The notes under the pieces: generated by a model
Told to the model about the DNA's origin: nothing
Database searches by the model: none
What the model saw: the letters and a program-made list of their open reading frames with translations, nothing else
Translations under genes and position numbers: made by a program
Shown: positions 1,031-55,080 of the stretch, one piece after another
Layout: each line of letters begins with the position of its first letter
How positions within the stretch are numbered: the stretch's first letter is position 1
From: Chiloscyllium plagiosum
Lineage: Eukaryota
Direction: 5' to 3'
DNA: 64,000 nucleotides
Assembly (NCBI RefSeq): GCF_004010195.1
Contig: NC_057751.1
Coordinates: 12,478,908-12,542,907, forward strand

Positions 1031-1287
1031 ACAATTCATGTGCAGACATATGAAGGATTTGATGTTGCATCTGACAAGCAGCACCTCCTACAGTCCTGTT
1101 TTGGGACTGCACAGAAGTATCAACCGAGATTAAGTGCTGAAGCCTCTAAGGTAGTACTTGCATCCACAATATTCCAACTGGAAGAGAGCCATGACTATAA
1201 AGTGGAGGGGAATAGGTGGCGTCGAGAGAGTCACTTAGGAGAGGAATCTTGGTTGAGTTTCCCCTCCCCTCCCTTGACTGGGAATGC

Positions 1288-1436
1288 TCCACCAACTACT
1301 TGATGAAGGAGCAGTGCTCCGAAAGCTAGTGCTTCCAAATAAACCTGTTGGAGTATAACCTGGTGTTGTGTGATTTTTAACTTTGTCCACCCCACCGCCC
1401 CACCCCACCCAAGGTCCAGCACCGGCACCTCCAAAT
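1288..1436 (+). mobile_element. Short Penelope-like-derived insertion (family A) carrying a near-intact minimal hammerhead motif
   Basis: Perfect 15-bp TSD CTTGACTGGGAATGC (1273-1287, 1437-1451); contains TTGATGA-A-GGAGC-AGT-GCTCC-GAA-AGCT-A. Confidence 0.75.
1297..1331 (+). ncRNA. Minimal type-I hammerhead ribozyme-like motif (C3->U variant)
   Basis: Stem I TAC/GTG; core UUGAUGA (1300-1306) plus an extra A; stem II GGAGC/GCTCC; GAA; palindromic AGCU replacing helix III; putative cleavage after A1328. Confidence 0.55.
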
Positions 1437-1462
1437 CTTGACTGGGAATGCCATTGCCAAAA

Positions 1463-2547: not shown

Positions 2548-5500
2548 AGGGGCAGGGGATGATGGTGTCCTGGACGGATGTTGAATACTTCTTCCAATCA
2601 AACTAGAGAATGAAAAAAAATTCAGATTTAACTTCAGTGCAGCAGTTTGTGCCAAACTGGAAGATTAGACATGTAAAGCCATCAGCACCTCGAAGTAGGG
2701 ACTTGAGTGATGTCAGAGCACAGAAGATTAATCCAGGTTGAATAAATGTTCAAGATTATGGAGTTTTGACAGAGGAGATAGGGAAAAACACTGGAGGTGT
2801 AAGATGTGAAGAGCAGTTTCCTCAACAGTCCAAGTAAAACTTATCTGACTTTTCTGAAAGCTATACACTCAGCTGCAGAGGCAGCCTTATCAATACCTTC
2901 CTCTTCTGAAACTAAGTTATAAATTGGGTGAAATTTTGCTCTGTAGTATGAGCCAGCCTTGTTTTCACAAGTTCTTCAGCAAAAAAAACTTATCTGATAC
3001 TTTAACTGAAGACTTAGACTTCCAATAAAATTGGGGCTAGAATATTTCATCCAAACATGTGAACCTGCTCATATCAGGAAACACAGATGTTATCCTCAAA
3101 CACACAACATTGTCTTTTACCCATCTGTTTAACTCCAAAGGAAATATGTAGATTACCACAGGCACAGTGTGTCCCCATCTTATCTCTGTTTTGGTGAAAA
3201 TCTGTTCCTGATAACGGTTGTTTCGTGTACAGGATGTAGAAAATTGCATTACACTGAGTCACAGAACTCTTAAGCTATACAATATTTTCTTGGCTGAGCA
3301 CAGCTGCCTAAATGCTACTGATGCCATCACTTTCAGCACCCTGCCAATACAGAGATTCCATCCCTCTCACAGTTACTTGCTCCAGATACATTGACTTTCT
3401 CATCGAAAGATTTCTCATCAAACAAGAAGCCCTGTATTCTATCAATTTCCTAGGTCACTCAGCTACACATGCTGAGCTGCAGTTCCTTAAGAATGATAAT
3501 GATGACAATCCCTTCAAGTTCTCATGTCCTGTGTTGTTGCAAACAAGTGCGTAAGTTTAGATATGGACCTGTGCAAATATTACCTATTCAATCTTGTTCA
3601 TGGCAACTTAGGTGGGAGGAGGGTGTTGACTCCAGACCAAGCATATGTCATCAGCAAGAGAAGATTTGTGTTTGCTATTAATTCTGCTGTCATACCTGAG
3701 CCACATTTAACGACTTGCTGAAGTTGCTGTGCTATTCATAAGAACTCCAAGAGGGAATGGAAGGATTCATCCATTTGGCTACAATCATAATGCACTGAGT
3801 GACTGAAAACTTCATGAGCTGACGTTATTTTGCCCATTTCATATTTATTAACAACTTAAGTGCTTTTGACTCAAATTGAGGTAATGTCCTTCCCAGCCTC
3901 CTCTAAGTGGTCAGTCTTTGCATGCTAGTTCAGATTGGCTGTTTGATTCTGAGGTGTATCATAATCAAATTCCAGCCTGTTCACAACACATTTACACACC
4001 TCCCTTTCCCATGAGAACACATCGTAAAATGATCAGGAGCAGCGAAGTTAGCTGAATGATCTTCTCTCCAGCTTAATGAATAGAAATTTGGCCAGCATCA
4101 TAAGTCAGCATGGAAGAGAACTGGTATTGTCAAGTCGAGAGTTGACAAAAGTATAGAAACGGTGCTTAAAACTGTATTCAATATATTCCATATGTGGCCC
4201 AAACTCAGCTTGCATTGATTTAACATTCATTCCTACTTTTGTATTTATGGCTTCCACAGTGTCAAGACTCCAAATCCCATCTGTCATTTTCATCACTTAT
4301 TCTATCTGTAATCTGTCTTTAGCGCACTGTGTTAATTCAACTATATATTTCTGTTGCTTTACTACTAAAGCTATATTTCCATTCATTGAATTAGTGAGTG
4401 ATAACAAATGCAGCAGGGCTGCTCTTTGGTTCATTTGCTTGTGCCAACTCTTCAGTGGAGGTATCTGGTTAGTCTGAGGGCTTTCTCCTCATAGCCCTGA
4501 AAAATTTCCCCTTCAAATATTGTTCCAATTAAAATATAGCAGGAATACGTACATACATACACACACAGACACACATATAAGGAAGCATTTCCATTGCATT
4601 TACTGCAAAATAACTATGCTCCAAACCTACATCCTCCTTATATCTCCAATCGCTTTACAACTCATTTGCTAGACCACAAAATATTTCATTTTTCACAATG
4701 AGTTTGAGTCTCTGAGCCTGGTCAGTATATATTTGAACAGGAAGGTGCCGGGGCAGGTTTTGTGAAGTAATACAAGACCAACATTCTGTCCAATCATATT
4801 CCATCAATGGTTCTGTCATCTACTTCCAATATAATATCCATGGAGACCATAATGGAGACGTATATCTGATCTCAGTATAGCAGAATGGTACTGATGGGTA
4901 AAAATAATCCTAAGCATCACTTCAAATCTATTTGTTACTTGTTTACTGATGGAGGAAGTTATCCTCTGAGCTAAGCACCATCCTGACTCAGAGCGATATT
5001 ACTGTTATTCACTGGGCCAAACTCCTGCAACTACCTTCCTCACAGCTCTTATGCAATACCGATCGTTGACAGAAGACATTGTGAATCATACTTGTGTGTA
5101 AACCAGTGTGCTACATACAGTCAACACCTAGTGTGCTTAAAGATGCACAATCTGGAGTGCACTGAAATAGTCAGGTCCAGGTGTATGAGTAACAGATGAG
5201 GGCTTCAACAATAGATGCACAGTCAATGATGCTGCCATGGTGAAATTAGTTGGTCTCAGTGATGGTATGATACATTGTTGCAAGCTCATCTTAGGATCAG
5301 ATAAAGTTGTGGATAGTCTGATTCAGCTTCAGGCAGTTGGCAGGGAGGTGTATGGAGACAGTACTTAGGGATAGTGTTTGTGGAAGCGGAACAGAGTTTG
5401 TGAAAGGGGGATGAAGTTTGTGAAGGAGACCAATGACTATGTTGGAGGGCATGTCTGCTCATTCAGTTCTGAGCATTACACAAATAGTCTGAAAGTTTAG

Positions 5501-6263
5501 AGACAGTGGAAGGTTTAAGAAGGGTAATGGTGAAAAAGAACTGCATGTCATCAGTGGTTCTTTTTCCATTTTTCATCCAAATTGCAGAGGACAAAGGGCA
5601 GGTCTTTGGGGAACATCAAAGCAAACAATGCAGGAAAGGCAAGAGAAGGCAGTACAGGTAATTCATTGGTTGTGACTGAATGGAGAAGAGTGTTAGTTGT
5701 CCCAATCAACTAGGCCTCAGTGCAGGATGATCCTTTGGCCAACTGTGTCAGAGGATGCAAACTTGGGGAAGTCTGAGGAGGAATTGTTTCCATTTATCAC
5801 TTGCACCCGATGCCATTTGTGTCTTATTTGCTCAGAACAATAGCGGGGTTGAGACCTGATTAGAAGAATTATGATGGTTTATAGCAAAGAAAAAAGAAAT
5901 CCAGAATCACAAATTTGTCAAGATGCTCCTTCTGTCAGTAAATTTTATCCATGATGATTCTGGATTCCATGCACTGTTCTCATAAAAGAGTGTCTCATTG
6001 ATTTTTTCACCTGCACTGCGATTGCATACAGCTCATGTCACATTGATCCCAATTGTTATAAAGCAAAGGTTGACTGTCTTGGAGAATAGGGTTTTACATT
6101 ATTCAGGGTTTCATAAGTCTCCAGTGATTACATGTTTCTACTTCTTGAAAAATAGCAAGAAACTCTGTTGAAGAGTTCCATGGTCATGCTGGTAAATATT
6201 AAGATGAGTACCTCTTTTTGTTGATGAGGATTGTCTCAGCAGTCTGACAGTGTTGAAAATGAG

Positions 6264-6485
6264 GAGAAAGTGAGGACTGCAGATGCTGGAGATCAGAATT
6301 GAGAGTGTGGTGCTGGAAAAGCACAGCCAGTCAGGCAGCACCTGAGGAGCAGGAGGATCAACATTTTGAGCATAACTCTTCATCCGAAATCAGGTTCACA
6401 AAGTAGAGCTTATGCTCGAAACATCGATTTTCCTGCTTCTTGGATGCTGCCTGACCAGTTGTGCTTTTCCAGCACCACACTCTTG
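6264..6485. mobile_element. Palindromic Penelope-like-derived short element (family B)
   Basis: Starts GAGAAAGTGAGGACTGCAGATGCT; inverted arms of ~85 bp; TSD AGTGTTGAAA(A/C)TGAG at 6249-6263 and 6486-6500. Confidence 0.8.
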
Positions 6486-6519
6486 AGTGTTGAAACTGAG
6501 ACAGCAGAGAGGAGACAGA

Positions 6520-7000
6520 TAGAGAGGAGCAGGAGAAGAGCACACAATGCAAAGACTCAATCCACCATTCAGTATGATCTTGGCTGCTCTTGTGGTTCAA
6601 ATGTATTTTCCTGTCTTGCTCGCCATAATCCTCAATTCCCTGAGAAATCAAAAGTCTCTCTGTCTCGGCCTTAAACATACGCAAACGTGGAGCTTCCACG
6701 AGTCTTGGAATGGAGTTCCAAATGTTCATAACCCTTTCAATGAAGCAGTTATTCATCTCAGTCTTTTATTAGTCCCTTATCCTGCAACTGTGCCCCTTTT
6801 TCTGTATTCCTCTTCCATCCAGAGGAAGCAACATTTCAACATCATATCTAAAATATTCAAGATAATGAAAGGGACAGACAATGAGATGACCTCTCATTCT
6901 TTTCAACCACAGAGAATTAGACCCATTTCAGTCAATCTGTCATCATAGGACAACTCTCTTTGTTGCCTACAATGAAGTATATCTTTTCCTAAAAATAGAG
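6520..7000 (-). mobile_element. Decayed CR1 3' end
   Basis: FIERVMNIWNSIP..MFKAETERLL resembles the CR1 ORF2 C-terminus. Confidence 0.6.
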
Positions 7001-10000
7001 ACTAAATGATGAACTTTGATAAATTTTAGTCTGGTCACCATTCTGTACAAGTATTTGAGGTAACCTGAATTTAATAGTGAAACATCCATTATCATTTTAT
7101 CTGACTGTTATTATGCTTCATCACATGCCAGACTGATGAATAGATATGGAACGCTTGGAGACTTCCAAGCAGCAACATTCTGAGACTGATGTAGTAGAGG
7201 AAATTATTTCAAGCAATTTATCTGTTTGTAACCCCTTAACAGCAGCCTACTATTATTTTCAAGTTTTATAACAACATATTATTTGGTTTAAATCATAAAC
7301 GTCAATAGGACCATTATCATAATCATTGTGTCTTCCTTGCAACTTCACTAACATTTGAAAATTACATATCAAACTAAAAGGCTGACAGACAGAGACACGT
7401 TATTACAAGATGCTGATCTATATTGTTGAACAAGTTGAAATATTCATCCTTTCCCAGAAGTCCAAACAATGTTTTGCTTCATGACATATTGCCCGAACAC
7501 CTCTCTAGTTAGGTTCCTGATTTCTTAAAGAATGATGGATGCGAAATTAGGTTCATTCATAAATCATCATTGTGCAGAACGCAGTTCTCACAATGTGTAA
7601 AGTGGTGGTTCCATATGCAGGGAACTTCAAGGCACGTCCTGACATGAGTCAAGAAGGGTGCGGTCTCTCTATTTGGAAAGACAACTGGAAGCGAACACAT
7701 TTGACATTTCACAGGGGTTACTCACACTGAAACTGGATTTGTACTTACATTCCTTATCATTGGGGATTGATGTGGGAAGGACACAAGAAATTTGCCTGAA
7801 CAAAAATAAAATAAATAATCATTCGGTAGAACAGAATGTGAGTATTACTGATACAAGGCGCATTTTGCCAAAGCTTTTCATCTTGTTCTCAGAAGGACCT
7901 TTTGCAAGGATACACATTCAAGGCAAAACTCAACATCGATACTGAACAAGAGCAAGTGGACTCTCATTGGGAGGTGTGGACGTGTCATTTTGTGGCAACA
8001 TGAAAGATAGACAGCTATTGCTTACACAATGAAAGAAAAAAAGATGCTTTTGCTGTAAATCATTTGCAGGAATATCACAGACACACCCATGAGAAAAATC
8101 AGGGCAAATACATAAAGTAAACTTTATTTACTGAGATTCAACTATTTTTGATGTCCTTTGATTATTAGAGTGGCTTTCTCTCTCTCCACAAACACCTCAC
8201 CACCACCAGCAACAGTAACATAGATTATGCAGCATTTTGAATGGAGAATAATGTTCCAAGGCATTTTATAATTGGAGTCAGACCCAAACAGAAACGATAG
8301 ATATTAAGTCACATTGACCAATCTGTAACCAACTAGTGTCCACCATTTGTTGGTGGTTTATGGCCTTATTGACATTGCTGTCCCTTGATGGCCTGACATC
8401 CAAGTGTATTCATCCAATATCAACTCTGTTACTTTCAGTAAAATAATCTCCCTGTAGCAGCATTTCCAAAAGCTGCGTGACCTCAGTTGCAATTCTGAGA
8501 TGCACCCTGGCTTCCCACAGTGATGCAGTAACAGCACAAAATGCAGACACTCAACAAAAAAACATGAATAATAAGACATGGTTTCTTCTCAAGAAAAATC
8601 ATTTTGGTCAGGTTTTTGGATAAAGACTCTTGCATTTTTGGATCAGATATTTTGAGCACCAAATTGAAAGAAAACTCAGAGCCTCTGGTAATGCATGCAA
8701 ATACCTGTTATTTATGCGTACTTTGACAGAATACATTGACAGCCAGTTTAAACAAATGTGAATCTGTCCTCACATAATGACCATCCACACCAACTTCTGG
8801 CAACGGCTGAAAATGTTTTTTTGGAAACTGGCTAATTTTCCTTCCTATCCCAGGGGAATAAAATGTCCAATTTCAGTGATACTGTTTGCTGCCTCAGGAG
8901 AGACCATGAAGAACAGTAGGAATTGGGACTACATTTTGGGACTTGAATGTGTCCAGCTCAGTGGCTTACATTGAACCAAAGAGGAAGCAAGAAAATATGT
9001 TCCTTGCCTTAATTTCCTGCTTCCTAGTGTATTCCCAGCAGACCCACTGGTACATCAGTGAAATGATTATCCTGGATGTACAGCTTGAGGAGTTGGAATT
9101 CTATGCTCCTCCAGTTCTAGCTACTGCACATCCCTGATTTCCCATGCCCACCTAGGCATCCATATCTTTAATACCTGGGCTTCAGGCTCTTAAATTCTCC
9201 TTTCAAATCTTCCTCTGAGCCTTTGTAAAGCTCCTTTACAGTTTCCTCAACTGTGTTCTTTATCTGTGTGTCAAATCCCATCTGATAGCACTCCTGTGTG
9301 GTGCCCTAATATGTTTTGATGTGTTAAAGGCATTAAACAGATAAAAGCTTTTCTATTTAGATTCTGACATCCAATTATTCCTCTGGTGACTTAAGGCCAC
9401 TCAATAATCAGTAGGAGCAGAACCCACCCCACCCTCCCTGACCCGCCAAATGCAGCTGATTCCCCATCTCTCCCCAGCTCCCCCACCCCTCATCCAACAG
9501 TAGATGAGTCTGCTATATTCTGCACGCAACCCTCGATCAGGGCTGGGACTTCCTTGGTTCGCATCACTTAGGACAAGACTGTGTGGTGTCCTTGCCAACT
9601 AAAGCACTGAGAGGTTATAAGTTGACAATGCAAGATGAACAGATGTGAGACAGACAGTAGAACAAAGGGCAAAGTGAATCTAAAGTACTGCTTAACGGCA
9701 AGAACATTTATCAATTGCTGTTCCAAACTGATTCTTATCAGTATTTCAATGCTTATTATTTGTCCTTCGAAATTATGTTGCACAGGACAGTGAAAATGTT
9801 ATCAATATAAACATGATAAAGTAAATTTGAACAGTTTAGGCACACCCTGGGGCATTCATATATAACTTACTGGAACTAATTCTACTTAAGCACTAAGCTC
9901 AGCATGAGCAGGAGCAAAGCAGCAGACTCTGCATCAACAGTGCCACCTCAGGCCAGTCAATGAGACCTACAGCTAATGTACACAAGAATCTCAAACAGCA

Positions 10001-17200: not shown

Positions 17201-18370
17201 TAATTTTATAGACTTCTATCAAGGTTACCATCAGCCTCTGCCCTCAAGAGAAAACAACCCAAGTTTTTCTTGCCTCTCCTTATAGCTTATACCTTCTAAT
17301 CTAAGTAACATCCTTGTAAACTTCTTCTGCAACCTTTCGAAAGCCTCCATATCCTTACTGTAATATGGTGACCAGAACTGAACGCAATACTCTAAGTGTG
17401 GTCTAGCCAAGGTATTATAAACCTGCAACATGACATCTTGACTCATGTACTCAGTTCCCTGGCTAATAAAGGCAAACAGGCCATTTGCCTTCTTTACCAT
17501 CCTACATACTTGCATGGCCACTTTCAGGGAACTCTGGACTCGAACCCCAAGATCTTTCTATACATCAATGCTGTTCAAAGTCCTGCCATTAATTATATGT
17601 TTTTCCTTAACATTTGAACTCTCAAAGAGCAGCACCTTACACTTACCCAGATTAAACTCCGTCTGCCATTTCTCTGCCCATATCTGCAACTGAGCTATAT
17701 CTTGCTGTATCCTTTGACAACCTTCTACACTACCGACAACTCCACTCATCTTTGTATCATCTGCAAACTTACTAACGCACCCATCTGCATTTTCATATAT
17801 ATCACAAACTGTAGAGGACACAATATAGATCCCTGGGGAACATCACTCATCATGGCCTCCAGTCTGAAAACACTCTTCCACCGCTACCCTCTGCTTTCTA
17901 TGGGCAAGCAAACTCTGAATCTATGTGGCCAAGCCAACATGGATCCCATGCATCTTAGTCTTCTGGATGAACCTACCATGACGGACCTTGTCGATAGCCT
18001 TACTAAAATCCATGTAAACATCATCCATAATTCTACCTTCATTGATCACCTGGACAAATTCGATCAATTTGCAAGACATGACCTGTCCTGCACAAAGCCA
18101 TGCTGACTGTCCCTAAGTAGGCTATTTTTTTCAAAATGTGCTTAAATCCGAAACCTAAGAATTTTTTCCCATAGTTTCCCAACCACCGATGTGAGACTCA
18201 CTGGTCTATAGTTTCCTGTATTATTCCAATTTCCCTTCTTGAACAGAGAAACAACATTAGCTACTTGTTGGGACCTCTCTAGTGGCAAATGAGGATACAA
18301 AGATCTTGGTCATGGCCCCAGCAATCTCCTCTCTTGCCTTTCTCAGTAACCTGGGGTAGATACCATCGGG

Positions 18371-18567
18371 GAGAAAGTGAGGACTGCAGGTGCTGGAGAT
18401 CAGAGCTGAAAATGTGTTGCTGGAAAAGCGCAGCAGGTCAGGCAGCATCCAAGCATCCAAGGAGCAGGAGAATCAACGTTTCGGGCATAAGTCTGGCTTA
18501 TGCCCAAAACGTCGATTCTCCCGTTCCTTGGATGCTGCCTGACCTGCTGTGCTTTTCCAGCAACACA
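18371..18567. mobile_element. Palindromic short element (family B) nested in a CR1 LINE
   Basis: Perfect 14-bp TSD TAGATACCATCGGG (18357-18370, 18568-18581); inverted arms; interrupts the CR1 ORF2 remnant at DGIYPRLL. Confidence 0.85.
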
Positions 18568-18746
18568 TAGATACCATCGGGCACTGGGGACTTATCAAAC
18601 TTAATGCTCTTCAAGAGATCCAACACCACTTCTTTATTGATCTCAAAATGCCTGAGCATATTAGTATGCTCCATTCAAATCTCAGTATCCTCCATGTCCT
18701 TCTCCTGGGTGAATACCGATGCAAAATACATTAATGATCTCATCCA

Positions 18747-20702: not shown

Positions 20703-21002
20703 GGGCGGCACTGCTGCCTCACAGCGCCAGAGACCCGGGTTCAATTCCCGCCTCAGGCGACTGACTTGTGTGGAGTTTGCACGTTCTCCCCGTGTCTGCG
20801 TGGGTTTCCTCCGGGTGCTCCGGTTTCCTCCCACAGTCCAAAGATGTGCAGGTCAGGTGAATTGGCCATGCTAAATTGCCCGTAGTGTTAGGTAAGGGGT
20901 AAATGTAGGGGTATGGGTGGGTTGCGCTTCGGCGGGTCGGTGTGGACTTGTTGGGCCGAAGGGCCTGTTTCCACACTGTAAGTAATCTAATCTAATCTAA
21001 TC
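20703..21002 (+). mobile_element. Young V-SINE (HE1-like), A-box deleted, nested in CR1 ORF1
   Basis: Near-identical to 48887-49210, with the same (TCTAA)n tail. Confidence 0.88.
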
Positions 21003-26245: not shown

Positions 26246-27879
26246 CAGCAGGTCTAATCTGATCTCCTGGATATTTCCAGTGCTTTCTGTTTCACAGTCA
26301 AGAACACAGCATGAACTGACCCTCTTCGCCAAGAGGTCATTGCAAAACAATGGGACTTTGCATCACTGCTGTGAGAGATCAAACAACTGATATCGGGGCA
26401 CTCAAATTCATGGACATCAACACTGTTTCACATTGCAATCTAAAGTTTTAATAAGTCGGGACTAAAAGTAAGATCTGGACAATTTTTATGCTTTGTGAGA
26501 GGAAAAGGTGTTGAAAACATTATCGCAAACATTTCTAAAAATTTCAGATTCCTTTCTCTTTCAGTTGATTTGTGGAACATTTGAGAGGCAGTTTTCTGGT
26601 ATGATCTTTGTAGTGGAAAGTTGTGCAGACCATTTTTAAGAATTCCAGATACATTATGAGTGACATTCTGACAAGCCTTTCAAATATTAAGAGCACATCT
26701 TTGTGCAGCATGGTGCTCCATACCACAGAAGAATGTTGGTACAATAGACAGGGGACAGTACAGGTTCACAAGAATGCTGAAATTAAAACAGAAAATGGAG
26801 GAAACAGTCAGGTCAGACAGCATCTGTGGAGAAGCAGAGTGAAATTTTCCATCAGAACTGGAATATTGCCTGGCACAAGGAAATACTGCCAGGATCCAAA
26901 CTTCTGCCAGCACTCATGAATGAAGTCTGGCCACCTGGATGAATCATCCTAAAAGCAACTGGCACCATTGGATATGTACAGCGAGGAGTCGACACCTTCA
27001 GGACTGGAGCCAAGAATATAAAGGAAAATAATAACTACATCGGGATATATTCAACTCAATTCATCACCAACATTTGAAGGGATAAATGTGAGAGCAGTAC
27101 CAAACAATGCAAAAGGAAATTCGTGCAAACATTCTTCAGCCAAATAGAGTTTAAAATGTGCGACCACACAGGACTTGAATGGTACAGATGGATTTTAGGG
27201 GTGTCGAGACAGCATGAGGGAGAAATGATGAGAACGATATGTGAATTAGCTGAAATGAAGAGAGGAGAAGGAGAAGGTATTGACTAGATGAGTCAAGTAA
27301 CCTTTTTCTGTGGAAGATACTCTGTGTAACTTCATGTGGTATTGTCTCATCATCACTGGGAAGGCATCCTTTCAATGTGTCAAACATGATTCAGAGGCGA
27401 TGTATATTATTTCCTGACTGACCCCAATAAGTTGGTGTCAGATTGTCACCCAGGTCTAGTGGTTGTACTTTGAAGGATTCTTTATTTTGATTCCTTATTC
27501 AATTTGTTTTCCAACACTGGCAACATTCAGATTGGCACTTGCATTTCCATTGTTGTAACCTTGCATTCCAAGATAGTCAAAGACTGAATGCAAGAGCCTT
27601 TCCCACACACAAAAAAAGGGTCATTTTTCTTCCTTGGCAGCACTATCAGAGGACTGGAACAGTCTTGCTGGATGACCGCAGAACAAAACATAATGGAAGT
27701 GTTGGAAAGAACATTGGAGTGTGTTCTTAAAATATAAAGATGTCACTGTGGAGTAAGAGTGTGAATGTCTCAGTCTATGTTGTACCTGACAATTGAGAGG
27801 GAGAGGGTACAATCGGAAGTGACAATATATCTGTTGAATAAAGGGACCTATGGAGCTATGAGGGAGGAGCTGGCCAAAG

Positions 27880-29775
27880 TTAGAACAACAGAGGATTACT
27901 AAGAAGGAAATACGCAGAGAAAAAATGAGGTACGAAGGTAAACTCTCCAAAAATATAAAGGAGGATAGTAAAAGCTTTTTTAGGTATGTGAAAGGTAAAA
28001 AAATGGTTAAGACTAAAATTGGGCCCTCTAAGACAGAAACAGGGGAATATATTATGGGGAACAAAGAAATGGCAGGAGAATTGAATTGGTACTTCAGATC
28101 TGTGTTCACTGGGGAAGACACAAGCAATCTCCCTGAGGTAACGGTGGCTGAAGGACTTGAACTTAAAGGAATTTATATTTGCCAGGAATTGGTGTTGGAG
28201 ATACTGTTAGGTCTGAAGATTGATATGTCCCCAGGGCCTGATGGTCTACATCCCAGGGTACTGAAGGAGGTGGCTCGAGAAATCGTGGATGCGTTGGTGA
28301 TTATTTTTCAGAGTTCGATAGATTCGCAATCAGTTCTTGCGGATTGGAGGGTGGCTAGTGTTGTACCACTTTTTAAGAAAGGTGGCAGAGAGAAAGCAGG
28401 AAATTATAGACCAGTTAGTCTGATCTCAGTGGTGCGAAAGATGCTGGAGTCTATTATAAAGGATGAAATTAAGACACATCTGTATAGTGGTAACAGGATA
28501 GGTCAGAGTCAGCATGGATTTATGAAGGGGAAATCATGCATGACTAATCTTCTGGAATTTTTTTGAGGATATAACTCTGAAGATGGATGAGGGAGATCCA
28601 GTAGATGTAGTGTAACTGGACTTTCAGAAAGCTTTTGATAAAGTCCCACATAGGAGGTTAGTGAGCAAAAGTAGGGTGCATGGTATTGGGGGCAAAGTAC
28701 TAACTTGGATTGAAAGTTGGTTGGCTGAAAGGAAACAAAGAATAGTGATAAACGGATCCATTTCGGAATGGCAGGCAGTGACCAGTCGGGTACCGCAGGG
28801 ATCAGTGCTGGGACCGCAGCTTTTTACAATATATGTTAATGATATAGAAGATGGTAATAATATTAGCAAATTTGCTGATGATACTAAGCAGGATGGCAGG
28901 GTGAAATGTGAGGAGAATGTTAGGAGATTACAGGGTGATCTGGACAGGTTAGGTGAGTGGTCAGATGCATGGCAGATGCAGTTTAATGTGGATAAATGTA
29001 TGGTTATCCACTTTGGTGGCAAGAACAGGAAGGCAGATTACTACCTAATTGGAATCAATTTAGGTCAAGGGGCAGTACAAAGAGATCTGGGTGTTCTTGT
29101 ACACCAGTCAATGAAGGTAAGCATGCAAGTACTGCAGGTAGTGAAAAAGGCTAATAGCATGCTGGCCTTCATAACAAGAGGGATTGAGTATAGAAGCAAA
29201 GAGGTTCTTTTGCAGCTGTACAGGGCCCTGGTGAAACCACACCTGGAGTACTGTGTGCAGTTCTGGTCTCCAAATTTGAGGAAAGACATTCTGGCTATTG
29301 AGGGAGTGTAGCGTAGGTTCACGAGGTCAATTCCTGAAAGACTGGAGCGACTGGGCTTGTATACCCTTGAGTTTAGAAGACTGAGAAGGGATCTGATTTA
29401 GAGATATAAGATTATTAAAGGATTGGACACTCTGGAGGCAGGAAACATGTTTCCGCTGATGGGTGAGTGCTGAACCAGAGGACACAGCTTAAAAATACAG
29501 GGTAGACCATTTAGGACAGAGATGAGGAGAAACTTCTTCACTCAGAGAGTGGTGGCTGTGTGGAATCTCTGCACCAGAGGGCAGTGGAGGCCCAGACTCT
29601 GGATTCATTTAAGAAAGAGTTGGATAGAGCTCTCAAGGGTAGTGGAATCAAGGGTTATGGAGATAAGGCAGGAACAGGATACTGATTAAGGATGATCAGC
29701 CATGATCATATTTAATGGTGGTGCAGGCTCGAAGGGCAGAATGGCCTACTCCTGCACCTATTGTCTATTGTCTAT
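27880..29775 (+). mobile_element. 5'-truncated CR1 LINE, RT region with few disablements
   Basis: ORFs 27925-28566 and 28661-29311 contain SPGPDGLHPRVLKE, NYRPVSL, QHGFMKGKSC, VPQGSVLGP, FADDTK and LEYCVQFWSP; (CTATTGT)n tail. Confidence 0.93.
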
Positions 29776-32700: not shown

Positions 32701-35258
32701 CACTCCATAGACTCAACTTTCTCCTACCTCATTTAGTACCCTTTGGTGAACAAAATCTCCATGTTCTGAGTCGAAAAATCTGTCAAGATATTAGCAAAGC
32801 AGAGAGATCTAACAAACTGCACAGATTATCTTCTGCATCAGCCTAATCAGATAACATTGATACCAACAGAGATTTGGATGTTTCAGTCCATTTTCTTCAG
32901 CTGAAATGTGATCATTTTCTTTCTAATCGTAAGCTATGCAATTTTGTTGAGTTCAAGCTAGTATGAATATTTGACAGTTTTCTTATTAGTTCTAACGACA
33001 CTTTTTCTGTTTCATAATTACTTACTTTTCCTAACAGGGCTCATTCTGTAGCATGAAAGGTGAAATCTACCCAATCAAATTGCAGCAAAGCAAGCCTCTG
33101 AACTGCAGATAAGAAAATAAAATTTCAGTGGAATATAATTTCCATGAGCCACAAGGACCACAATTAGCTTGACTGCATATGAACATACCTGCTCATCAGT
33201 CATGCTTCTTTCACTCTCCAATACCATTTCCCCCTCCACACTCCACAATGACACCCACATACACATATGCTCAGAAAAGGTGCATGGGTACACCATCTTC
33301 TCTAAATCACGCATGTGCTCACTTCAAATAATACTGCTGTTTCTTCATCATCGTTGGGTCAAAGTCCTTGCATGTTGCTAGGATCCCAGCTGATAGCAAT
33401 AATGGATAAATGAGATCCCAGATCAAAAGCTGCTTGATGGATAGCATGTTTTGTTTTTTTTTTGTTTACTATTAAAGTCAGTCGCTGAGGACATTCACAG
33501 GAGACTGTAAATATACTTTTAACAAAAAAGAAAAGCAATTCATTGCATAAAACAAAATCACAAACTTCATGAGACTCAATAGTATAAATTGGACTGATCT
33601 CATTCTAAATATCAGAATGAAATATTCATGCTTTCTATCCCTGCAATTTCCTTAAAGATGCTCAAATCTCAGTAATGAATTGCTAAAACTTTCCACTCAA
33701 TTCATACACTGTCATAAGTTTCCTTTCAGCAATTACTCCATGTTCACAATCTTATTTTCTTCAGTTAATGCTTGTCCTCAAGACTCTCCAAAACCAATCT
33801 GCAAACTCACTATTATGTAAAATGGATTCCTCAGCTTATGTCTTCCACAGATTTGACCTCTTGGAAACTGATAAAACAACATCTGTGCTGTAATAACTGT
33901 CCCCTTTTCACATTTGTTTCTGACCCCCTTCCATCTCTCATAAAACCTAATTCAGCAAACATTGTAGCAATTGTCACTCCTGGTGACTTGCTGGTCATTT
34001 AGCTAAAGTTATTTGACATATTGTAAACATTGTTTTCAAATGGCCTTCTGAGTTTTCATAAAATAACAAGTCAGACCACAGAAAACTAAAATTCATTATC
34101 CCTCCGCTTTAGTATTCACTTTCCCAAATAACAATAATGTGTTTTGAGCCATCATTATGACCTAGAATGCAGCCATTCAAAAATAAATCTCATATTCTGA
34201 AGGGCAATATTTCCCACCAATACCATTTTTTTTGGTACATGAACCTTGGAGGTCGATGTGTGGCATTGAAACCTCAAGTCAATGCATTGGAACAACTGCA
34301 TGACCATGCAGCTTAGAGGGCACATTGCTTCCCGCATCCTAAGAATTGATAAATAAATAACTAAACCAACATGCCTTGTTGCATCCCTTCACATTCAACA
34401 TGTGCTAAGGGTCAAAGAGGCTTGCGTTCTGATTTCCCCAATCCCTCTTGCTCCACTGCTGCCCTCCCCATTCTCACAACTTTCCACTCAGTCACGGGCA
34501 CTGGTTCTATCACGATACATTACTCGAGGACTAGTGAACCAGAGCAAGTTCCTGAAGGACATTGTTGTGGTTGCCCAGAGATTTCTACAGGAAGCAGAAG
34601 CTGTGAGAGTGTGAAGGAGATCTGCATCAAAAACTACAAATATCAGACACAGGAAGGGATGACAAAAGAGAAAAGATTAACAGTACAATGGACAGGAGGA
34701 ACATTAGATCACCGTCGGGAATTTATAAAGCTATTGAAGCAATGATAAATCTTTCAAAATGGATAAGAATTGCCAATAGCTTCTTTCATGATCCTCAACC
34801 ATCCCTCATCTAGAAGGCAACGGAAATGGAACTTGCCTCAAGTTTGCAAGCTCCAAGCCAACCTTTCAGTGCTCCTAATTCCCATTACTGCTTCAGGGAG
34901 CAAGGACATTCTCTCAGTAGTTGTCCAGGTGTCAGTTTGTCTCTGTTGGGAGCATAATTGTGTCTGAATCATCTCTTGTGAGTTTAAACACAACATCAAA
35001 AATTGAGTGTGATTCCCTGTTCTGATGGTGTATTGCAATCTCAGAGGCATTAACTGAGGCCCTGCTCCCTGTTTGGATCATTGGTAGTAATCCTGTGTCA
35101 TGATGTGAAGAAAAACATGAGATCTCCTGGAGCCTTGCTCATTTACCTTTCTTTTGTTCATTTATATTCCTTTTCATTCATTGCTGCCTGTTGTCCTTGA
35201 CGGTTTAAAATAGCTGCTGGGTTTATCTTGTAACAATAGGGATTGAATGTCAAACCAG

Positions 35259-35381
35259 GAGAAAGTGAGGACTGCAGATGCTGGAGATCAGAGTCGAGAG
35301 TGTAGTCCTGGAAAAGCACAGCAGGTCAGGCAGCATCCGAGGAGCAGGAGAATCGATGTTTCGGGCATAAGCCCTTCACTC
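35259..35381. mobile_element. Single-arm copy of family B element
   Basis: Same GAGAAAGTGAGGACTGCAG start; TSD AATGTCAAAC(C/T)AG at 35246-35258 and 35385-35397. Confidence 0.8.
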
Positions 35382-36069: not shown

Positions 36070-36150
36070 CAAATTCACTTGCACAGAGGTGATCCAGAAT
36101 AATGTCTGTATTCATCTGATTGTCACACGGTGGACACACTTCTGATGCTG
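36070..36150 (-). CDS. SFRP1: SFRP1-like coding exon 2 (81 nt, start of netrin/NTR module)
   Basis: Acceptor TTCTTTCCAG| and donor TTTG|GTAAGT; phase 1-1 is compatible with exon 1. Encodes AASEVCPPCDNQMNTDIILDHLCASEF, matching the SFRP1 motif VCPPCDN...HLCASEF. Confidence 0.92.
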
Positions 36151-36780
36151 CTGGAAAGAAGCAAACCAATGTTTTTGTCAGTCAGAACAGATGGGGTGAG
36201 AAACAACAGGAACTCTTTAGTACACAGAGGCATTCATACAATAAAATCATCTGCATTTATATATCTCATTATAAGACATCCATTTTCCAATGTGATTAGG
36301 AGCAGTATTTTTGGATAAAGGTAACAAACAATCAAAAAAAGCATGTTCAAAAAGAAATGGTTCTACTTCACAGGGAGTCAGTTCTGAAGCAGTATAACAT
36401 CCAGGAGATTTTCAATACAAACTGAAAGACGACATTTGTCATTATTAAGCAGAGCTCAAGTTGTCCTATTACTTGGAATTTTCTTTTACCTCATTCCAAT
36501 TTCCTAAAGGACCCCACTCCCTGGAACTCTGAATGTAAGCACCTCACTAAATTTCTGGCTGTCCTTGGCAGCCAAGATGTCATGGGTCAGCCAGCTTTTT
36601 GAACACAAGGACTGCTCAGATCAGGGCGTTCTCTGCTCACCTGACTTGAACTTCTCAACAAGGATCACTGCCTAAACTTTGGGGAAGCATTAGTGTCCTG
36701 GTAATGTCGTTTGAGTAATAATTAATGAGCCTCAGGCTCATGTTCTGGAGAATGGGTTTGAATCCCACCAAGGCACATGG

Positions 36781-37508
36781 TGAATTTTGAACTTAACTAA
36801 AAGCAATCAAGGGTAAAAAGCTCATCTAATAATATCCATGAAATCTCTGTTGCTTGTTGTCAAAAATCATTGAATTCACTGATCCCCTGTCAGAGGATGA
36901 AATCTAGCTTCCCTATCTCGTCTGGCCCACATGTGATGCCAGACGCACAGCAATGTAGTTGATTGTTAAGTGCCCTCTGGGAATGAAAAATGGGCATCAA
37001 TCTTGGCATATCCAGCCATTCCACATCCCATGAACAAATTGAAACAAAACAGCCCAAAGGCAATTATGGTGACTTTCCCCGCATCACTTATGAAGGAGAA
37101 TAGTGAACACATGTAGATGATGAGAGTGAGGATTCTCCTGGTGTTGAATTTTGAACTTAACTAAAAACAATCAAGGATAAAAAGCTCATCTAATAATATC
37201 CATGAAATCTCTGTTGCTTGTTGTAAAAAATCATTGAATTCACTGATCCCCTGTCAGAGGATGAAATCTAGCTTCCCTACCTCGTCTGGCCCACATGTGA
37301 TGCCAGACGCACAGCAATGTAGTTGTTTGTTAAGTGCCCTCTGGGAATGAAAAATGGGCATCAATCTTGGCATATCCAGCCATTCCACATCCCATGAACA
37401 AATTGAAACAAAACAGCCCAAAGGCAATTATGGTGACTTTCCCCGCATCACTTATGAAGGAGAATAGTGAACACATGTAGATGATGAGAGTGAGGATTCT
37501 CCTGGTGT
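36781..37508 (+). repeat. Tandem duplication, 2 x 364 bp
   Basis: 36781-37144 and 37145-37508 differ at about five positions. Confidence 0.95.
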
Positions 37509-38644
37509 TTATGTTTCAGGACAATATGGTGATGCATTCATCCTGCAGTACAATGGAAAGGCTTGCACTTAGTGAGCAGTGTTCATGACCCTGGGACATC
37601 TCAAAGTACTTGGCAGCCAGTGAGATACAATTGAAGAGTAATCACCATTGTAATGTTGGAGCCACACAAACACAATGATTTTTGGGTCTTTGCATTTGTT
37701 GGAAATTCAATCTAGACAGTTTTAAGTCTTTATAATACAGTTTAGATCTGAGCCTTCCAGTTCATAAACATAGCTGAGATGCTAACCCACCACCTGAGAG
37801 TGTTTTAACCACCCATCCCTGGTCCTACCCAAGGAAAACCTGGAATTTTAGTCTGGAACCATTTTCCTGGCTCACATTCATTGTTTTTGTTTATTAACCC
37901 CTCTGTCTGCTTGGTCATATTAAAGTGATCCTTTGAAAATTATCATGAAGAATTTTCCTCATCATACGTAGGAGAAGGGCAAAGAAAAACAATATAATTC
38001 TGGGGAAAATTGAAAACATTGAAAAAAGAAAGCCAAAGAGAAAATGTTTTTCATCAGTTGATAGAAATAACAAAATCGCCTAAGGGTAGCATTGGTGGGG
38101 ATGTGGGGAATTAAAACAAATGTTGAAGCAAGTTTTGCTTTCTTCAGTGTGAAATTGTCCATGACAAGTAAAATAAACAGCAGCATGCAGTGAGAGGCTG
38201 GGTCTACTGAATCAGCATGTGATATAAATAGCTCTGAGCGGTGTCTGTCAGAAGAACTGCAATCCTGCACTTCAGCACAATCCATCTTTCACTACACACC
38301 AGTTGATGGAGCCATTACAGAGCCTTGTATGAACCACCTGTGTATACAACTTGTCGTACCAGTCAAACAGAGTGGTTCCACTGAGTCTGATCCATGTCTG
38401 CATGCTGGGCTCTCAGCTTCACCCAGTTTGCCTGTCTGTTATTTGTAAGGTAATGCGGTTCAGTGGGTTAGCACTCTGAGTCAGAAGACTGATTGGATTC
38501 AAGTTGCAAAACATACAGAAAGCTGACACTGCTTTGCAGTAGTGCAGGAGAATTCCAGTGTTGGATAAATGATTTTGCATTAATGTTAAACCAAGGCTCC
38601 ATCTTCCTTTTGAAGCACAGCAGGTGAACTTTCCTGATGTCAAA

Positions 38645-43631: not shown

Positions 43632-43923
43632 CTGCTTGAACCACAGCATAGGAGAAAGTGCGGACTGCAGATGCTGAGGATCAGAGTTGAGAGGATGGTG
43701 ATGGAAAAGCACAGAAGGTCAGGCAGCATCTGAGGAACAGGAACATAGAACATAGAACATAGAACAATACAGCACAGAACAGGCCCTTCGGCCCACGATG
43801 TTGTGCCGAACTCTGCTTGAACCACAGCATAGGAGAAAGTGCGGACTGCAGATGCTGCGGATCAGAGTCGAGAGGATGGTGATGGAAAAGCACAGAAGGT
43901 CAGGCAGCATCTGAGGAGCAGGA
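43632..43923 (+). repeat. 111-bp direct duplication flanking a 70-bp CR1 tail insertion
   Basis: 43632-43742 = 43813-43923 (3 differences); 43743-43812 is a minus-strand CR1 3' tail with (ACATAGA)3. Confidence 0.9.
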
Positions 43924-44050
43924 GAATCGATTTTTCGGGCATAAGCCCTTCATCAGCCCTTCCTGATGTGCTTATGCCTGAAATGTTGATTCTCCTGCTT
44001 CTTGGATGCTGCCTGATCTGCTGTGCTTTTCCAGCACTACACTCTCGACT
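43833..44050. mobile_element. Palindromic short element (family B)
   Basis: Inverted arms of ~90 bp; minus strand 43925-43956 reads CTGATGAAGGGCTTATGCCCGAAAAATCGATT; degenerate TSD GAAC(C/T)ACA(G/A)CAT. Confidence 0.8.
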
Positions 44051-44199
44051 TAGAACTACAACATTTAAAAATTGTGTTTCTTCACTTTTTCTCAAGGCAT
44101 CCTCAGCAGTTTGAAACATTCACCCTGGTTAGAAACTCTCAAGCCCACACATAGTTGACAGGTCTCTAGCTACCAGAAACTGTACGGGACTAACCAGAT

Positions 44200-45928: not shown

Positions 45929-46174
45929 TAAAAGAAAGTGAGGACTGCAGATGCTAGAAAGCAGAGTCGAGAGTATGGTGCTGGAAAAGCACAGCAGATC
46001 AGGCAGTATCCAAGGAGCAGTAGAATCAACTTTTCAGGCACAAGCCCTTCGTCAGGACTTCATCAAGCCCATGATCAAGCCATTCCTGATGAAGAGCTTA
46101 TGCCCAAGACATTGATTTTCCTGCTCCTTGGATGCTGCCTGATCTGCTGTACTTTTCCAGCACCACACTTTCGA
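45929..46174. mobile_element. Palindromic short element (family B)
   Basis: Perfect 16-bp TSD CTTATAATCTTTCTCC (45913-45928, 46175-46190); inverted arms; CTGATGAAGAGCTTATGCCC at 46086. Confidence 0.85.
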
Positions 46175-48119
46175 CTTATAATCTTTCTCCCTCCGTTTCC
46201 CTCACCCTGACCTCCTCTTTCATCATCTTTTGTCATAATCATTTTGTGACAGCAAATGTAGTGCACTGTGTCTTGCAATGTTTTAACAAGAAGCCAATTT
46301 GAATAATACGAATGACTGAATTCATTCTGTACATCTCTATGATTCTGAGGTTTGAGATGATGCACCTAACTAGATACTCTCTGTCAATAGTGAATACAAG
46401 GCATAGCAGCGCTGTCTCTTGCATGCATCCATGTCATTGACCCAACCCAAACCCACCACACCAGACTGACTTGTCAATGCTGAAACATTAAGAACAAGCG
46501 TTCAGTCCCTGAGACTAGTTTGACCATTCATCCAGACCTTACTTGATTTGTTCCATTGTCTCAGCATTACTTCATATCCCAATAATCTTTCTTGTACAAA
46601 AATCTACCTCAGTCTCGAAAGCTCCAACAGTCCCAGAATCCACATTCTTTCAAGGGACGTGTTCCAGGTTTCCACTACCTTGAAAACACCTTCCATACTT
46701 AGCTTGTATATTTGTCATATTTTCATGTATCCTTTCAATTACACTCTGTTTCCCTATTCCACAAATAAACAACCCAGAGTCAGGAAATTCAACTATGAAA
46801 ATAGACTCAAGGCAAGATTCTTAATTTGAAGATCAGCTTGCCTTTTGCATTTTTTTAACTTCCATTCACTCCAAGCTTCCACATCTCTGCAAATGTTTTT
46901 ATTTCAAACCACACACTGTCATTGAGAAGTGAGACTGTTTTCTATACAGTACCTTAAGGCAGGTCAGTTGATGAACAGAACATCCACTCATTGCACTTTG
47001 ATTAAAACCAGAACCTTATTACTTTTGTGGTATGGCTGTAAGACTCTGCCTTCTCTACCAAAATTGAACATAATTATTCCCCCTTCCCCCAATGTACTTT
47101 ATAGGTAATTTAGAAATCACAAAAAGGAATATGCAAAATATTCATTGCTGAGAAAGAAACACAAGGAAATCATAGATTACAAATGTACATGTGTCTGTAT
47201 GTCCTTGTGTAAGATTGATCTTTCTGTGTGCATATGTATGTTATCTACATTCATTGCTATATAAGTGAATGGATATGTCTTTATAAGTACCTGTATACAT
47301 TTTGCTAATGAATATACAAGTGTATATTCATCAGCATGTATGTGAACACATATTTATGCCTAATGCATAAACTGTGCTGTGCTGGTCAAATCAAGAGTGA
47401 CACATAACCAAATTAACAAGGCTAGTAAGCAAAAGAAATACAATTCATTCTCCTTGACCCGTTTAAAAATTGCATTCACTGCCTGCAAACAGACAAACTT
47501 CAACTTCAACATTTTAAAGATTTTGAAATACAGATTCTTAACCCAAAATTTATTGAGACTCCTCATTGATTTCTTCAAAAAAGCTTTTGTTGTAGCTGAC
47601 CCTGTTTGTGACTTTGCACTGAACTGAACAAGTCTGCAAATGGAAGATGACAGTTCCTCTGTTGTCATATTTTTAACCATGATCAGTTTCTTGTTGGGAA
47701 ACTGCTGCTGGTGTCCAGCGAAGGAGGGAGAACTCATTTAATGTTTCAAGCAGCTTGTACCAGGATTTAAGCCAACTGGATTGGCTCACATCATCTGGAA
47801 ATAAGTAACAAATGTCAAATAATTGGATCACTGCCTTTGCCATTTCCCATAACCGCAACTCGGGATTTTACATGGCACAAACAGCCATTTCCATGGTATC
47901 AATTGAAAAACCCAATAGCTCAGTTGTCAATTGTTCAATTCATTGGGGAGCTATAACTTACAGCTCCCCAATGTAAGTTATAGCTTACATTTTCTATTCA
48001 TTGTCTGATCTCAACTGGAATGGAGCTCCAGTTGGTCTCAGTACCTTGTGCAGTTGACAGCTGAAGAATTGAAACAGATTTCCCCTGTTCTCGCACCTCC
48101 GCACCTCCAATATGACGTG

Positions 48120-48886: not shown

Positions 48887-49210
48887 GGGCGGCACGGTGG
48901 CACAGTGGTTAGCACTGCTGCCTCACAGTGCCAGAGACCCGGGTTCAATTCCCGACTCAGGCGACTGACTGTGTGGAGTTTGCACATTCTCCCCGTGTCT
49001 GCGTGGGTTTCCTCCGGGTGCTCCGGTTTCCTCCCACAGTCCAAAGATGTGCAGGTCAGGTGAATCGGTCATGCTAAATTGCCCATAGTGTTAGGTTAAA
49101 GGGATAAATATAGGGGTTTGGGTGGGTTGCGCTTCGGCGGGTCGGTGTGGACTTGTTGGGCCGAAGGGCCTGTTTCCACACTGTAAGTAATCTAATCTAA
49201 TCTAATCTAA
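48887..49210 (+). mobile_element. Young full-length tRNA-derived V-SINE (HE1-like)
   Basis: A-box-like TGGCACAGTGG, B-box-like GGTTCAATTCC, V-domain GTGTGGAGTTTGCACATTCTCCCCGTGTCTGCGTGGGTTTCCTCCGGGTGCTCCGG, CR1-like 3' end and (TCTAA)n tail; nested in a CR1 RT remnant. Confidence 0.88.
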
Positions 49211-53900: not shown

Positions 53901-53967
53901 GTTATCTCCCTCTCCTGAAGTTTCTAAGTGTGTTACATTTTCACGGTGGGCCGAGAGCAAATATTAC

Positions 53968-54496
53968 CTTGCGAGCTGGTCGAAAGAGTGGCGTTCGGGT
54001 TGGGAAAGACGATGCACAGGTCATTGTCCAGTGGGAACTTGTCGCACTTTAACATGTCCGGCCAAGGGAAGCCAAAGAACTCCATAACTGGCGTGCAGGC
54101 GTCCCGCACTGCCGTGCAGAGTGAGCGGCACGGGTAGATGGGTCTGTCCAGGCAGATGGGAGCGTACAGTGAGCAGAGAAAGAGCTGGGTGTTGGGGTGA
54201 CAGTTCTTGTTCAGCAGCGGCACCCAGCTGCTCGCCTGTTGCTGCACCTCCTCCATGGTCTCGTGGTCCAGCAAGTTGGGCAAGCTCATCTTGTGGTACC
54301 CGACGTTGTTGCAAAGTCTCAAGGCGAAAGGAATATCCACGCAGTGCGGTGGCTTAATGTAAAAGCGGCTGTCCGCTTGCCAGCTGGATTCCTCTACTTC
54401 CATCGCAACACACCAGGCAAACAGCCCCATGCTGAGTGGCAGAAATACGGTATAAAACTTCCAGTAAGTCTTGCTTGAAATACCTCTCTGTCCCAT
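53968..54496 (-). CDS. SFRP1: Secreted frizzled-related protein (SFRP1/5 subfamily, closest to SFRP1), coding exon 1: signal peptide + Frizzled cysteine-rich domain
   Basis: ATG in strong Kozak context (AAAATGG) and a hydrophobic N-terminus. RFYIKPPHCVDIP..LCNNVGY..LPNLLDHET..QQASSWVPLLNKNCH..FLCSLYAPICLDRPIYPCRSLC..CDKFPLDNDLC carries the 10 CRD cysteines, followed by an NAT sequon. Splice donor AAG|GTAATA at 53968/53967 (529 nt, phase 1). Orthology to SFRP1 is tentative. Confidence 0.93.
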
Positions 54497-55080
54497 TTTT
54501 CCTTTGGTTACTTTGTTGTTGCAAAGTCCTGGCTGGAGCTGGCAAGGTTACTTCCCTCCGGTTTGCACAGTTGGCCTTTAAGTTTCACTGTGATAATCAG
54601 TCTGAGCAGAAAACAGCAGCGCGGGGTTAGATTTTGTTCTGCCCTCTGCTTTAGAAACAGGAACGCCTCGAAGATATCAGTACCTGTCTCTGTTTTTTCA
54701 TTATCCAGCCTAGCCGGGGTTTTCTCTGGCTCGCTCGCTAACTCAGTCCCACCTTTCTTTCAGTCCACCGTGCACATAATGTGTTAAAGGGAGGGCTGAT
54801 TTGTGAAACTGGCTCCACTGGTCTCAGCATCCAGCTTCTGAACACAAGTTTGTTCTGCCGGGTATGTGCAGCTTTCAGTCTTCATCACAACCTCGCAAGA
54901 CCAACCAATCAGCCTGTGACCATCCCCTATTACACTCCTCTGCAAGTGTCAGTCCCAGCCTTAATTTACCAATCAGCTTTTTGGAAAGGAAGTGACAGAC
55001 ACCGCCCCCCCCCCCCCCCCCCGCCCCGTCTCTCCACCTCCACCTCCAGCCCCATCCCCCAACTTCCCCACCACTCAGCC
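54497..55080 (-). promoter_or_regulatory. Probable 5'UTR/proximal promoter of the SFRP gene
   Basis: Directly upstream of the ATG, no recognisable repeats, CpG-enriched relative to the window. CCAAT motifs at ~54905 and ~54969; poly-C tract with CCCCGCCCC GC-box at ~55005-55027. The TSS cannot be determined. Confidence 0.5.

Follow-up and report, generated by a model that had tools for sequence, protein, structure and literature searches.

The insertion at 1288-1436 of the window (the whole stretch of shark DNA analysed here, 64,000 nt) is an old copy from a very abundant family of repeats bearing a minimal type-I hammerhead motif. We consider it probable that this mutated copy represents the ~130-base terminal-repeat end, a solo pLTR with its tail, of an autonomous Penelope-like retrotransposon (PLE). 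The analysis combined the window itself with public sequence data: four of 24 listed public runs were aligned to 1080-1510 at 80% likeness, comprising contigs from two organism A studies, one contig set from organism B and, again for organism A, raw poly(A) reads from single cells.

Structure and age of the insertion

The insertion encloses 149 bp between two 100% identical copies of the 15-bp target-site duplication (TSD) CTTGACTGGGAATGC (Table 1), as had been proposed in a sequence-only reading of this DNA. When the window was dinucleotide-shuffled 100 times, exact 15-mer repeats no more than 300 bp apart averaged 0.02 per shuffled sequence. The real window holds five such places, one of which is the TSD of another hammerhead repeat, so the shuffles understate the true background. 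The same reading had the element begin at TAC; it placed the parts of the motif correctly, but the element starts 9 nt earlier, at 1288. A 19-bp stretch and an extra C near 1292 occur privately in this copy, which leaves a family-equivalent length of ~129 bp. BLAST across the 64-kb window found no second copy of the element, and this copy has no inverted half.

Table 1. Features of the insertion and its flanks, with window positions.
Feature	Position	Strand	Basis or remark
Left TSD, 15 bp	1273..1287	+	identical to 1437-1451
5' leader	1288..1296	+	copy begins 12 nt before the hammerhead core; family loose ends before 1293, 1301 and 1304
Minimal type-I hammerhead motif	1297..1331	+	descriptor match; family letters; architecture as in PMC4209133
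AATAAA poly(A) signal	1338..1343	+	9 nt past the predicted cut; loose ends with A-runs in RNA behind 1352 and 1358
Main poly(A) addition site of family transcripts	1355..1358	+	27-30 nt past the predicted cut
GU/U-rich stretch 3' of the poly(A) site, conserved family body	1359..1394	+	sequence and family letters
Private C-rich insert of 19 bp, lacking in the family majority	1395..1413	+	contig depth collapses at 1395-1409
Family 3' end, likely Penelope 'tail', without poly(A) tract	1414..1436	+	loose ends behind 1394 in 4/4 runs
Right TSD	1437..1451	+	first base equally assignable as the element's last; loose-end consensus

Single contigs span the unique left flank and the element in both organism A runs, with one and two other letters. 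An organism B contig also crosses from flank to element, showing six other letters in 241, five of them in the flank. Because such contigs exist under both species labels, the insertion predates the split between organisms A and B, and the letters of the organism B contig leave room for no more than one of the two changes, at 1297 and 1300, to have arisen after that split. Among the 15 joints listed of 74, none skips from ~1287 to ~1452 as an empty, pre-insertion site would. This copy is likely inert.

The hammerhead motif

Stem I is formed by TAC (1297-1299) and GTG (1329-1331), with one G-U pair, and is followed by the core TTGATGA (1300-1306), which carries a C3U change, and by an extra A at 1307. 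Stem II has five base pairs, GGAGC (1308-1312) with GCTCC (1316-1320). GAAA occupies 1321-1324, G15.2-C16.2-U16.1 correspond to 1325-1327 and A17 to 1328, the palindrome AGCU covers 1324-1327, and the cut is predicted between 1328 and 1329. The layout matches that of the minimal hammerheads in the pLTRs of metazoan PLEs (Cervera and De la Pena 2014, PMC4209133), whose consensus is given in the supplement of that paper as 'NNN CUGANGAH G..C GAAAN palindrome NUH NNN'. As described there, these motifs belong to type I, having a short helix I and no true helix III, and they occur mostly as solo copies; the extra base between positions 9 and 10.1 (A1307 here), the G10.1-C11.1 pair (G1308-C1320) and the palindromic 15.2-16.2 are likewise shared. 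The row for the turtle Chrysemys in that supplement has the same G-C-U-H end followed by AAUAAA. A term search of supplement file 2 found no row for a shark, skate or chimaera.

In the core of the hammerhead, C3 pairs with G8 (PMC3088659), so that U3 opposite G8 makes a wobble. The change plausibly weakens the predicted ribozyme of this copy. Its effect is probably moot here because the copy stands alone, the window containing no other hammerhead of this family, and has a second private change in stem I, at 1297. U3 with G8 also occurs in the PLE-linked Saccoglossus(1) row of the PMC4209133 supplement. We found no measured rate for C3U alone in the accessible text of the literature searched, PMC3088659 and PMC7151607 among the sources.

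Folded alone, 1297-1331 gives stem II pair probabilities of at least 0.985 and stem I values of 0.54-0.96; in the fold of the whole element these drop to ~0.49 for stem II and below 0.01 for stem I. A candidate conserved 3' hairpin with a 9-pair stem (1360-1368/1417-1425) reached pair probabilities of 0.12-0.15 and is not supported.

Family majority and decay of the copies

The number of matching contigs was 55,138 (X1), 69,797 (X2) and 59,344 (X13), nearly all of them on 1290-1394. Contig depth exceeds 10^6 on 1305-1394, compared with 7-28 on the unique flank, although summed depth is not a copy number. The apparent abundance of the family is greater than the 4,000-9,000 motifs given for coelacanth and Xenopus in PMC4209133. 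This copy differs from the family majority at ~4 of 99 places. At position 1300, C makes up 93, 94 and 95% of contig depth in the three DNA runs and is present in 499 of 578 RNA reads, so C3U is this copy's own change, as the earlier reading had held. Position 1297 is C in 82, 85 and 64% of contig depth, which makes the family stem I CAC/GUG. The other majority differences are C at 1353 (92-93%) and C at 1315 (~60%). The resulting majority, CAC-CUGAUGA-A-GGAGC...GCUCC-GAAA-GCU-A-GUG, has an intact core, CUGANGA...GAAA..UH. The sequence-only reading had proposed a minimal type-I hammerhead of the Penelope kind and had expected a family consensus with CUGAUGA and GAAA; the descriptor layout and the majority letters bear out both.

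The further expectation that the core would be better conserved than its flanks failed across the genomic copies. Core position G12 (1321) is A in 17-22% of depth and its CpG partner at 1320 is T in 24-28%, so that G12 decays at the CpG rate, and most non-core positions are likewise free of any variant at 10% or more, leaving the core not visibly better conserved than the flanks. This pattern of G12 and flanks is that given by neutral decay of dead copies, which are not expected to preserve a core. No compensatory change in stem II was found among family variants at 10% or more.

A second minimal-hammerhead family lies on the minus strand of the window at five loci (6262-6486, 18370-18568, 35257-35378, 43632-44064 and 45933-46176) and is built in the same way as the element at 1288-1436. 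Four of the five loci have inverted halves, and four of the five have TSDs of 10-16 bp. Its stem II and palindrome differ and its core is the same, with intact cores at 43956 and 46055. A putative conserved 3' stem in the consensus of this family is not supported, none of its 20 pairs showing a compensatory change. At 43632-43923, beside a short TGTTCTA repeat, a local duplication with a 181-bp offset comprises the 3' end of this family and its flank, at 97% identity over 111 bp.

These data bear on a rival reading, in which a real repeat resembles a hammerhead by chance or forms the end of a retroelement other than Penelope. An Rfam search of the element, even at E<=10, returned one chance match and no hammerhead, the predicted fold of the element gains no stability over shuffled versions (z -0.64), and the family shows no internal covariation. 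Against this, the full hammerhead descriptor has a single match in the window, this site, compared with 0.01 per 64-kb shuffle (100 shuffles), a rate that flatters because the descriptor was written after the motif had been seen. In addition, the two changes by which the motif is spoiled, at 1297 and 1300, are precisely those that the family majority puts right, and the second family keeps the core despite its different stem II and palindrome. We therefore regard this explanation as extremely unlikely.

Searches for relatives returned none in two scans of metagenomes (0 and 0), in prokaryote genomes (0) or in viral sequences (0). Collection scans with shorter motifs returned 120 and 7 loci, and as none of these 127 matches more than 26 nt of the element, all are chance matches. 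Literature searches on this family in sharks and on a hammerhead with a poly(A) signal in Penelope found no description of the family in the accessible texts, the available portions of PMC6155905 and PMC6765202 included. The chondrichthyan retrozymes of bioRxiv 10.64898/2026.07.22.740005 may include it.

Ends of the family

The loose letters ahead of 1293, 1301 and 1304 follow a common family consensus, and the family thus continues upstream of this copy. Over up to 30 letters, agreement with this consensus ranges over 0.39-0.44 for contigs and 0.49-0.70 for RNA reads, compared with 0.34-0.37 for unrelated AT-rich ends; for the loose ends before 1293 it is 0.41-0.44 in contigs and 0.70 in RNA reads. 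These values fit a family in which most copies stop near 1288, at a distance of 12 nt from the core, with a minority extending further upstream. The 5' end is modal rather than fixed, and the 3' end is defined. Behind 1394, the loose-end consensus resumes at the equivalent of 1414 in all four runs and ends without poly(A), the majority reading ...ATCAT and then G in two of the four runs and A in the other two. The ATG at this end is a possible start codon of an ORF. The target site starts with CTTGA (1437-1441), four of whose five letters are like the family's 3' continuation; this could be a priming microhomology, although a single site proves nothing.

Twelve of the 15 joints listed of 74 link 1293-1303 to 1332-1357 on the opposite strand, although their clustering at 1293-1303 is biased by a reference that begins at 1288 and by this copy's private changes, which cut alignments short at 1293 and 1301. 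Inverted 5' partial copies are a hallmark of PLEs (PMC8557442, PMC3846280). Besides these opposite-strand joints, the upstream continuation, the 3' end without poly(A) and the 15-bp TSD are PLE traits, the TSD being longer than the 8-10 bp of the rotifer PLE examples in PMC3846280.

The sequence-only reading had called the insert a non-autonomous retroelement. Retrotransposition fits the TSD, but a self-standing non-autonomous family is not borne out; the upstream continuation of the family fits a truncated Penelope end as well as or better than a non-autonomous family. A self-standing version would be a SINE-like mini-element of ~130-160 nt, derived from a pLTR, with its own source copies and mobilised in trans by Penelope proteins. 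Such an element would agree with the very large number of copies, most of which appear to start near 1288, and with the lack of any ORF seen attached to them, and pLTR sequences sufficed for trans mobilisation in a rotifer (PMC3846280). However, the family extends at least 24 nt upstream of the copy, more consistently in poly(A)+ RNA (0.70), no promoter was identified, and the inverted 5' joints correspond to the ones seen when PLEs insert in the ordinary way. We consider this possibility rather unlikely, if still worth keeping in view.

Family RNA and polyadenylation

In ~2% of one RNA run, 3,015 reads matched the family, and since only 51 of them are at least 99% alike, the reads stem from many copies and are not assigned to this locus. 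The unique flanks drew 0 reads in the same share of the run, a result that is uninformative either way on expression of the locus. An A-run follows a few letters behind 1352 in 615 reads and follows directly behind 1358 in 624 reads, and sense RNA drops in depth from 1008 at 1355 to 376 at 1356. The poly(A) site is ~14 nt after AATAAA. As the stretch is not A-rich, oligo-dT mispriming on family sequence is unlikely; copies truncated beside genomic A-runs could contribute.

The depth of poly(A)+ reads is flat over the predicted cut, with 2119 at 1328 and 2105 at 1331, which indicates that the captured RNAs are uncleaved; a 30-nt product could vanish in library making. An RNA ending at 1358 lacks approximately the last 78 bases of this copy, and such a polyadenylated RNA cannot have templated the insert. 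The arrangement resembles the Clec2 3'-UTR hammerhead (PMC6765202), whose cut lies just upstream of the poly(A) signal, so that cleavage would remove the tail. The Clec2 hammerhead, as described there, is single-copy, split and canonical, with activity shown, whereas the motif here is minimal and high-copy and its cleavage is predicted only.

The RNA data also weigh on the possibility that the insert is one unit of a non-LTR retrozyme, made from a circular RNA that hammerheads had cut out of tandem repeats. Such elements (PMC7229834; bioRxiv 10.64898/2026.07.22.740005) are, like this one, short, non-coding and pLTR-related with a type-I hammerhead. The insert's size is within the range of vertebrate retrozyme units, and according to the preprint such units, related to pLTRs, are present in the sole chondrichthyan sampled. 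Non-LTR retrozymes are defined by tandem units and circular RNA, in contrast to the solo, TSD-flanked copy here with a poly(A) signal in use. The window holds this single copy and no tandem units, none of the 15 joints listed of 74 leads from the 3' end back to the start, the motif is minimal rather than canonical type I with loop-loop contacts (PMC7229834), and poly(A)+ reads run across the predicted cut site. A retrozyme origin is therefore very unlikely.

A probable Penelope-like origin

A close comparison for a truncated Penelope end is the Poseidon PLE PAc of Anolis carolinensis (Frangieh et al. 2024, PMC11167929), which likewise has a hammerhead in its pLTR and a defined 3' end without poly(A). 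The anole protein is reported to nick DNA and to prime inside unprocessed RNA at the pLTR/ORF junction; insertion does not need ribozyme cleavage, and the protein switches the hammerhead on. PAc has no RNA ends at its cut site, and the shark family has no step in depth at the predicted cut. The ORF of PAc begins inside the hammerhead, whereas the sole candidate ATG here is ~110 nt downstream, at the family 3' end. More generally, a pLTR serves as 3' UTR of one copy and as 5' UTR and promoter of the next (PMC2377424), and most minimal hammerhead motifs occur singly and are probably truncated PLEs (PMC4209133).

On this basis, the GIY-YIG endonuclease of a parent element would have nicked the target with a ~15-nt stagger, and its reverse transcriptase would have started inside uncleaved RNA at the pLTR/ORF junction, which would correspond to the 3' end of the element. 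Synthesis of the cDNA would then have passed the poly(A) site and all of the hammerhead and have stopped 12 nt beyond the core, probably at the RNA start. We infer that the insert is such a short pLTR cDNA, extending from the junction to a point slightly beyond the hammerhead. A 5' end made by the ribozyme was considered and rejected, since the cleavage product would start at 1329 without the core and this copy holds both sides. Cleavage in a live parent would require either a hammerhead dimer or binding of the element's protein. As monomers, minimal hammerheads show no cleavage, as dimers they are weak (PMC4209133), and eight of nine Xenopus retrozyme dimers did not cleave (bioRxiv 10.64898/2026.07.22.740005). 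No ORF for a reverse transcriptase or GIY-YIG endonuclease was found in this copy, and the collection scans returned no relative linking one.

Surroundings in the window

An older SINE-like repeat lies just right of the TSD (~1463-1730), with related copies at 2235-2540, 20708-21002 and 48892-49207; by eye, its head appears tRNA-derived. A broken LINE-type reverse transcriptase in two frames is present at 27862-29311 (Pfam RVT_1), and related fragments occur near 17-19, 25-26, 41-42 and 48-51 kb. At 36778-37509, a head-to-tail duplication of ~365 bp, 98% identical, represents either a recent duplication or an assembly artefact.

The minus strand carries a frizzled-domain exon at 53933-54547 (Pfam Fz, E 6.5e-30) and a likely second exon at ~36100-36180 that has no Pfam hit. 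We take these to belong to an sFRP-type gene. No third exon of this type was found in the window: all 35 minus-strand frames of at least 75 aa below 35.8 kb lack a matching later domain. It is possible that the insert sits, in antisense orientation, within one of this gene's long introns.

Implications

The single locus matters little, being an old and probably inert repeat copy. The family extends the PLE hammerhead class known since 2014 to a lineage absent from the available parts of the literature compared. One finding adds something useful: the RNAs of the family receive their poly(A) just past the hammerhead and read through its cut site, and this constrains which RNA can template new copies. 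More speculatively, and with considerable doubt on our part, the pLTR might act as a two-way module present in very large numbers. AATAAA would end poly(A)+ transcripts 29 nt past the cut, and activation of the ribozyme by dimerisation or by an element protein would strip poly(A) from element RNAs and from host read-through RNAs. New ~130-bp copies would then arise only from the other, unpolyadenylated RNA end, as integrated 'strong-stop'-like cDNAs reaching the RNA start just ahead of the hammerhead. The role of PLE hammerheads is described as still unclear in the accessible text of PMC8557442, and the polyadenylation result offers a direct test of it.
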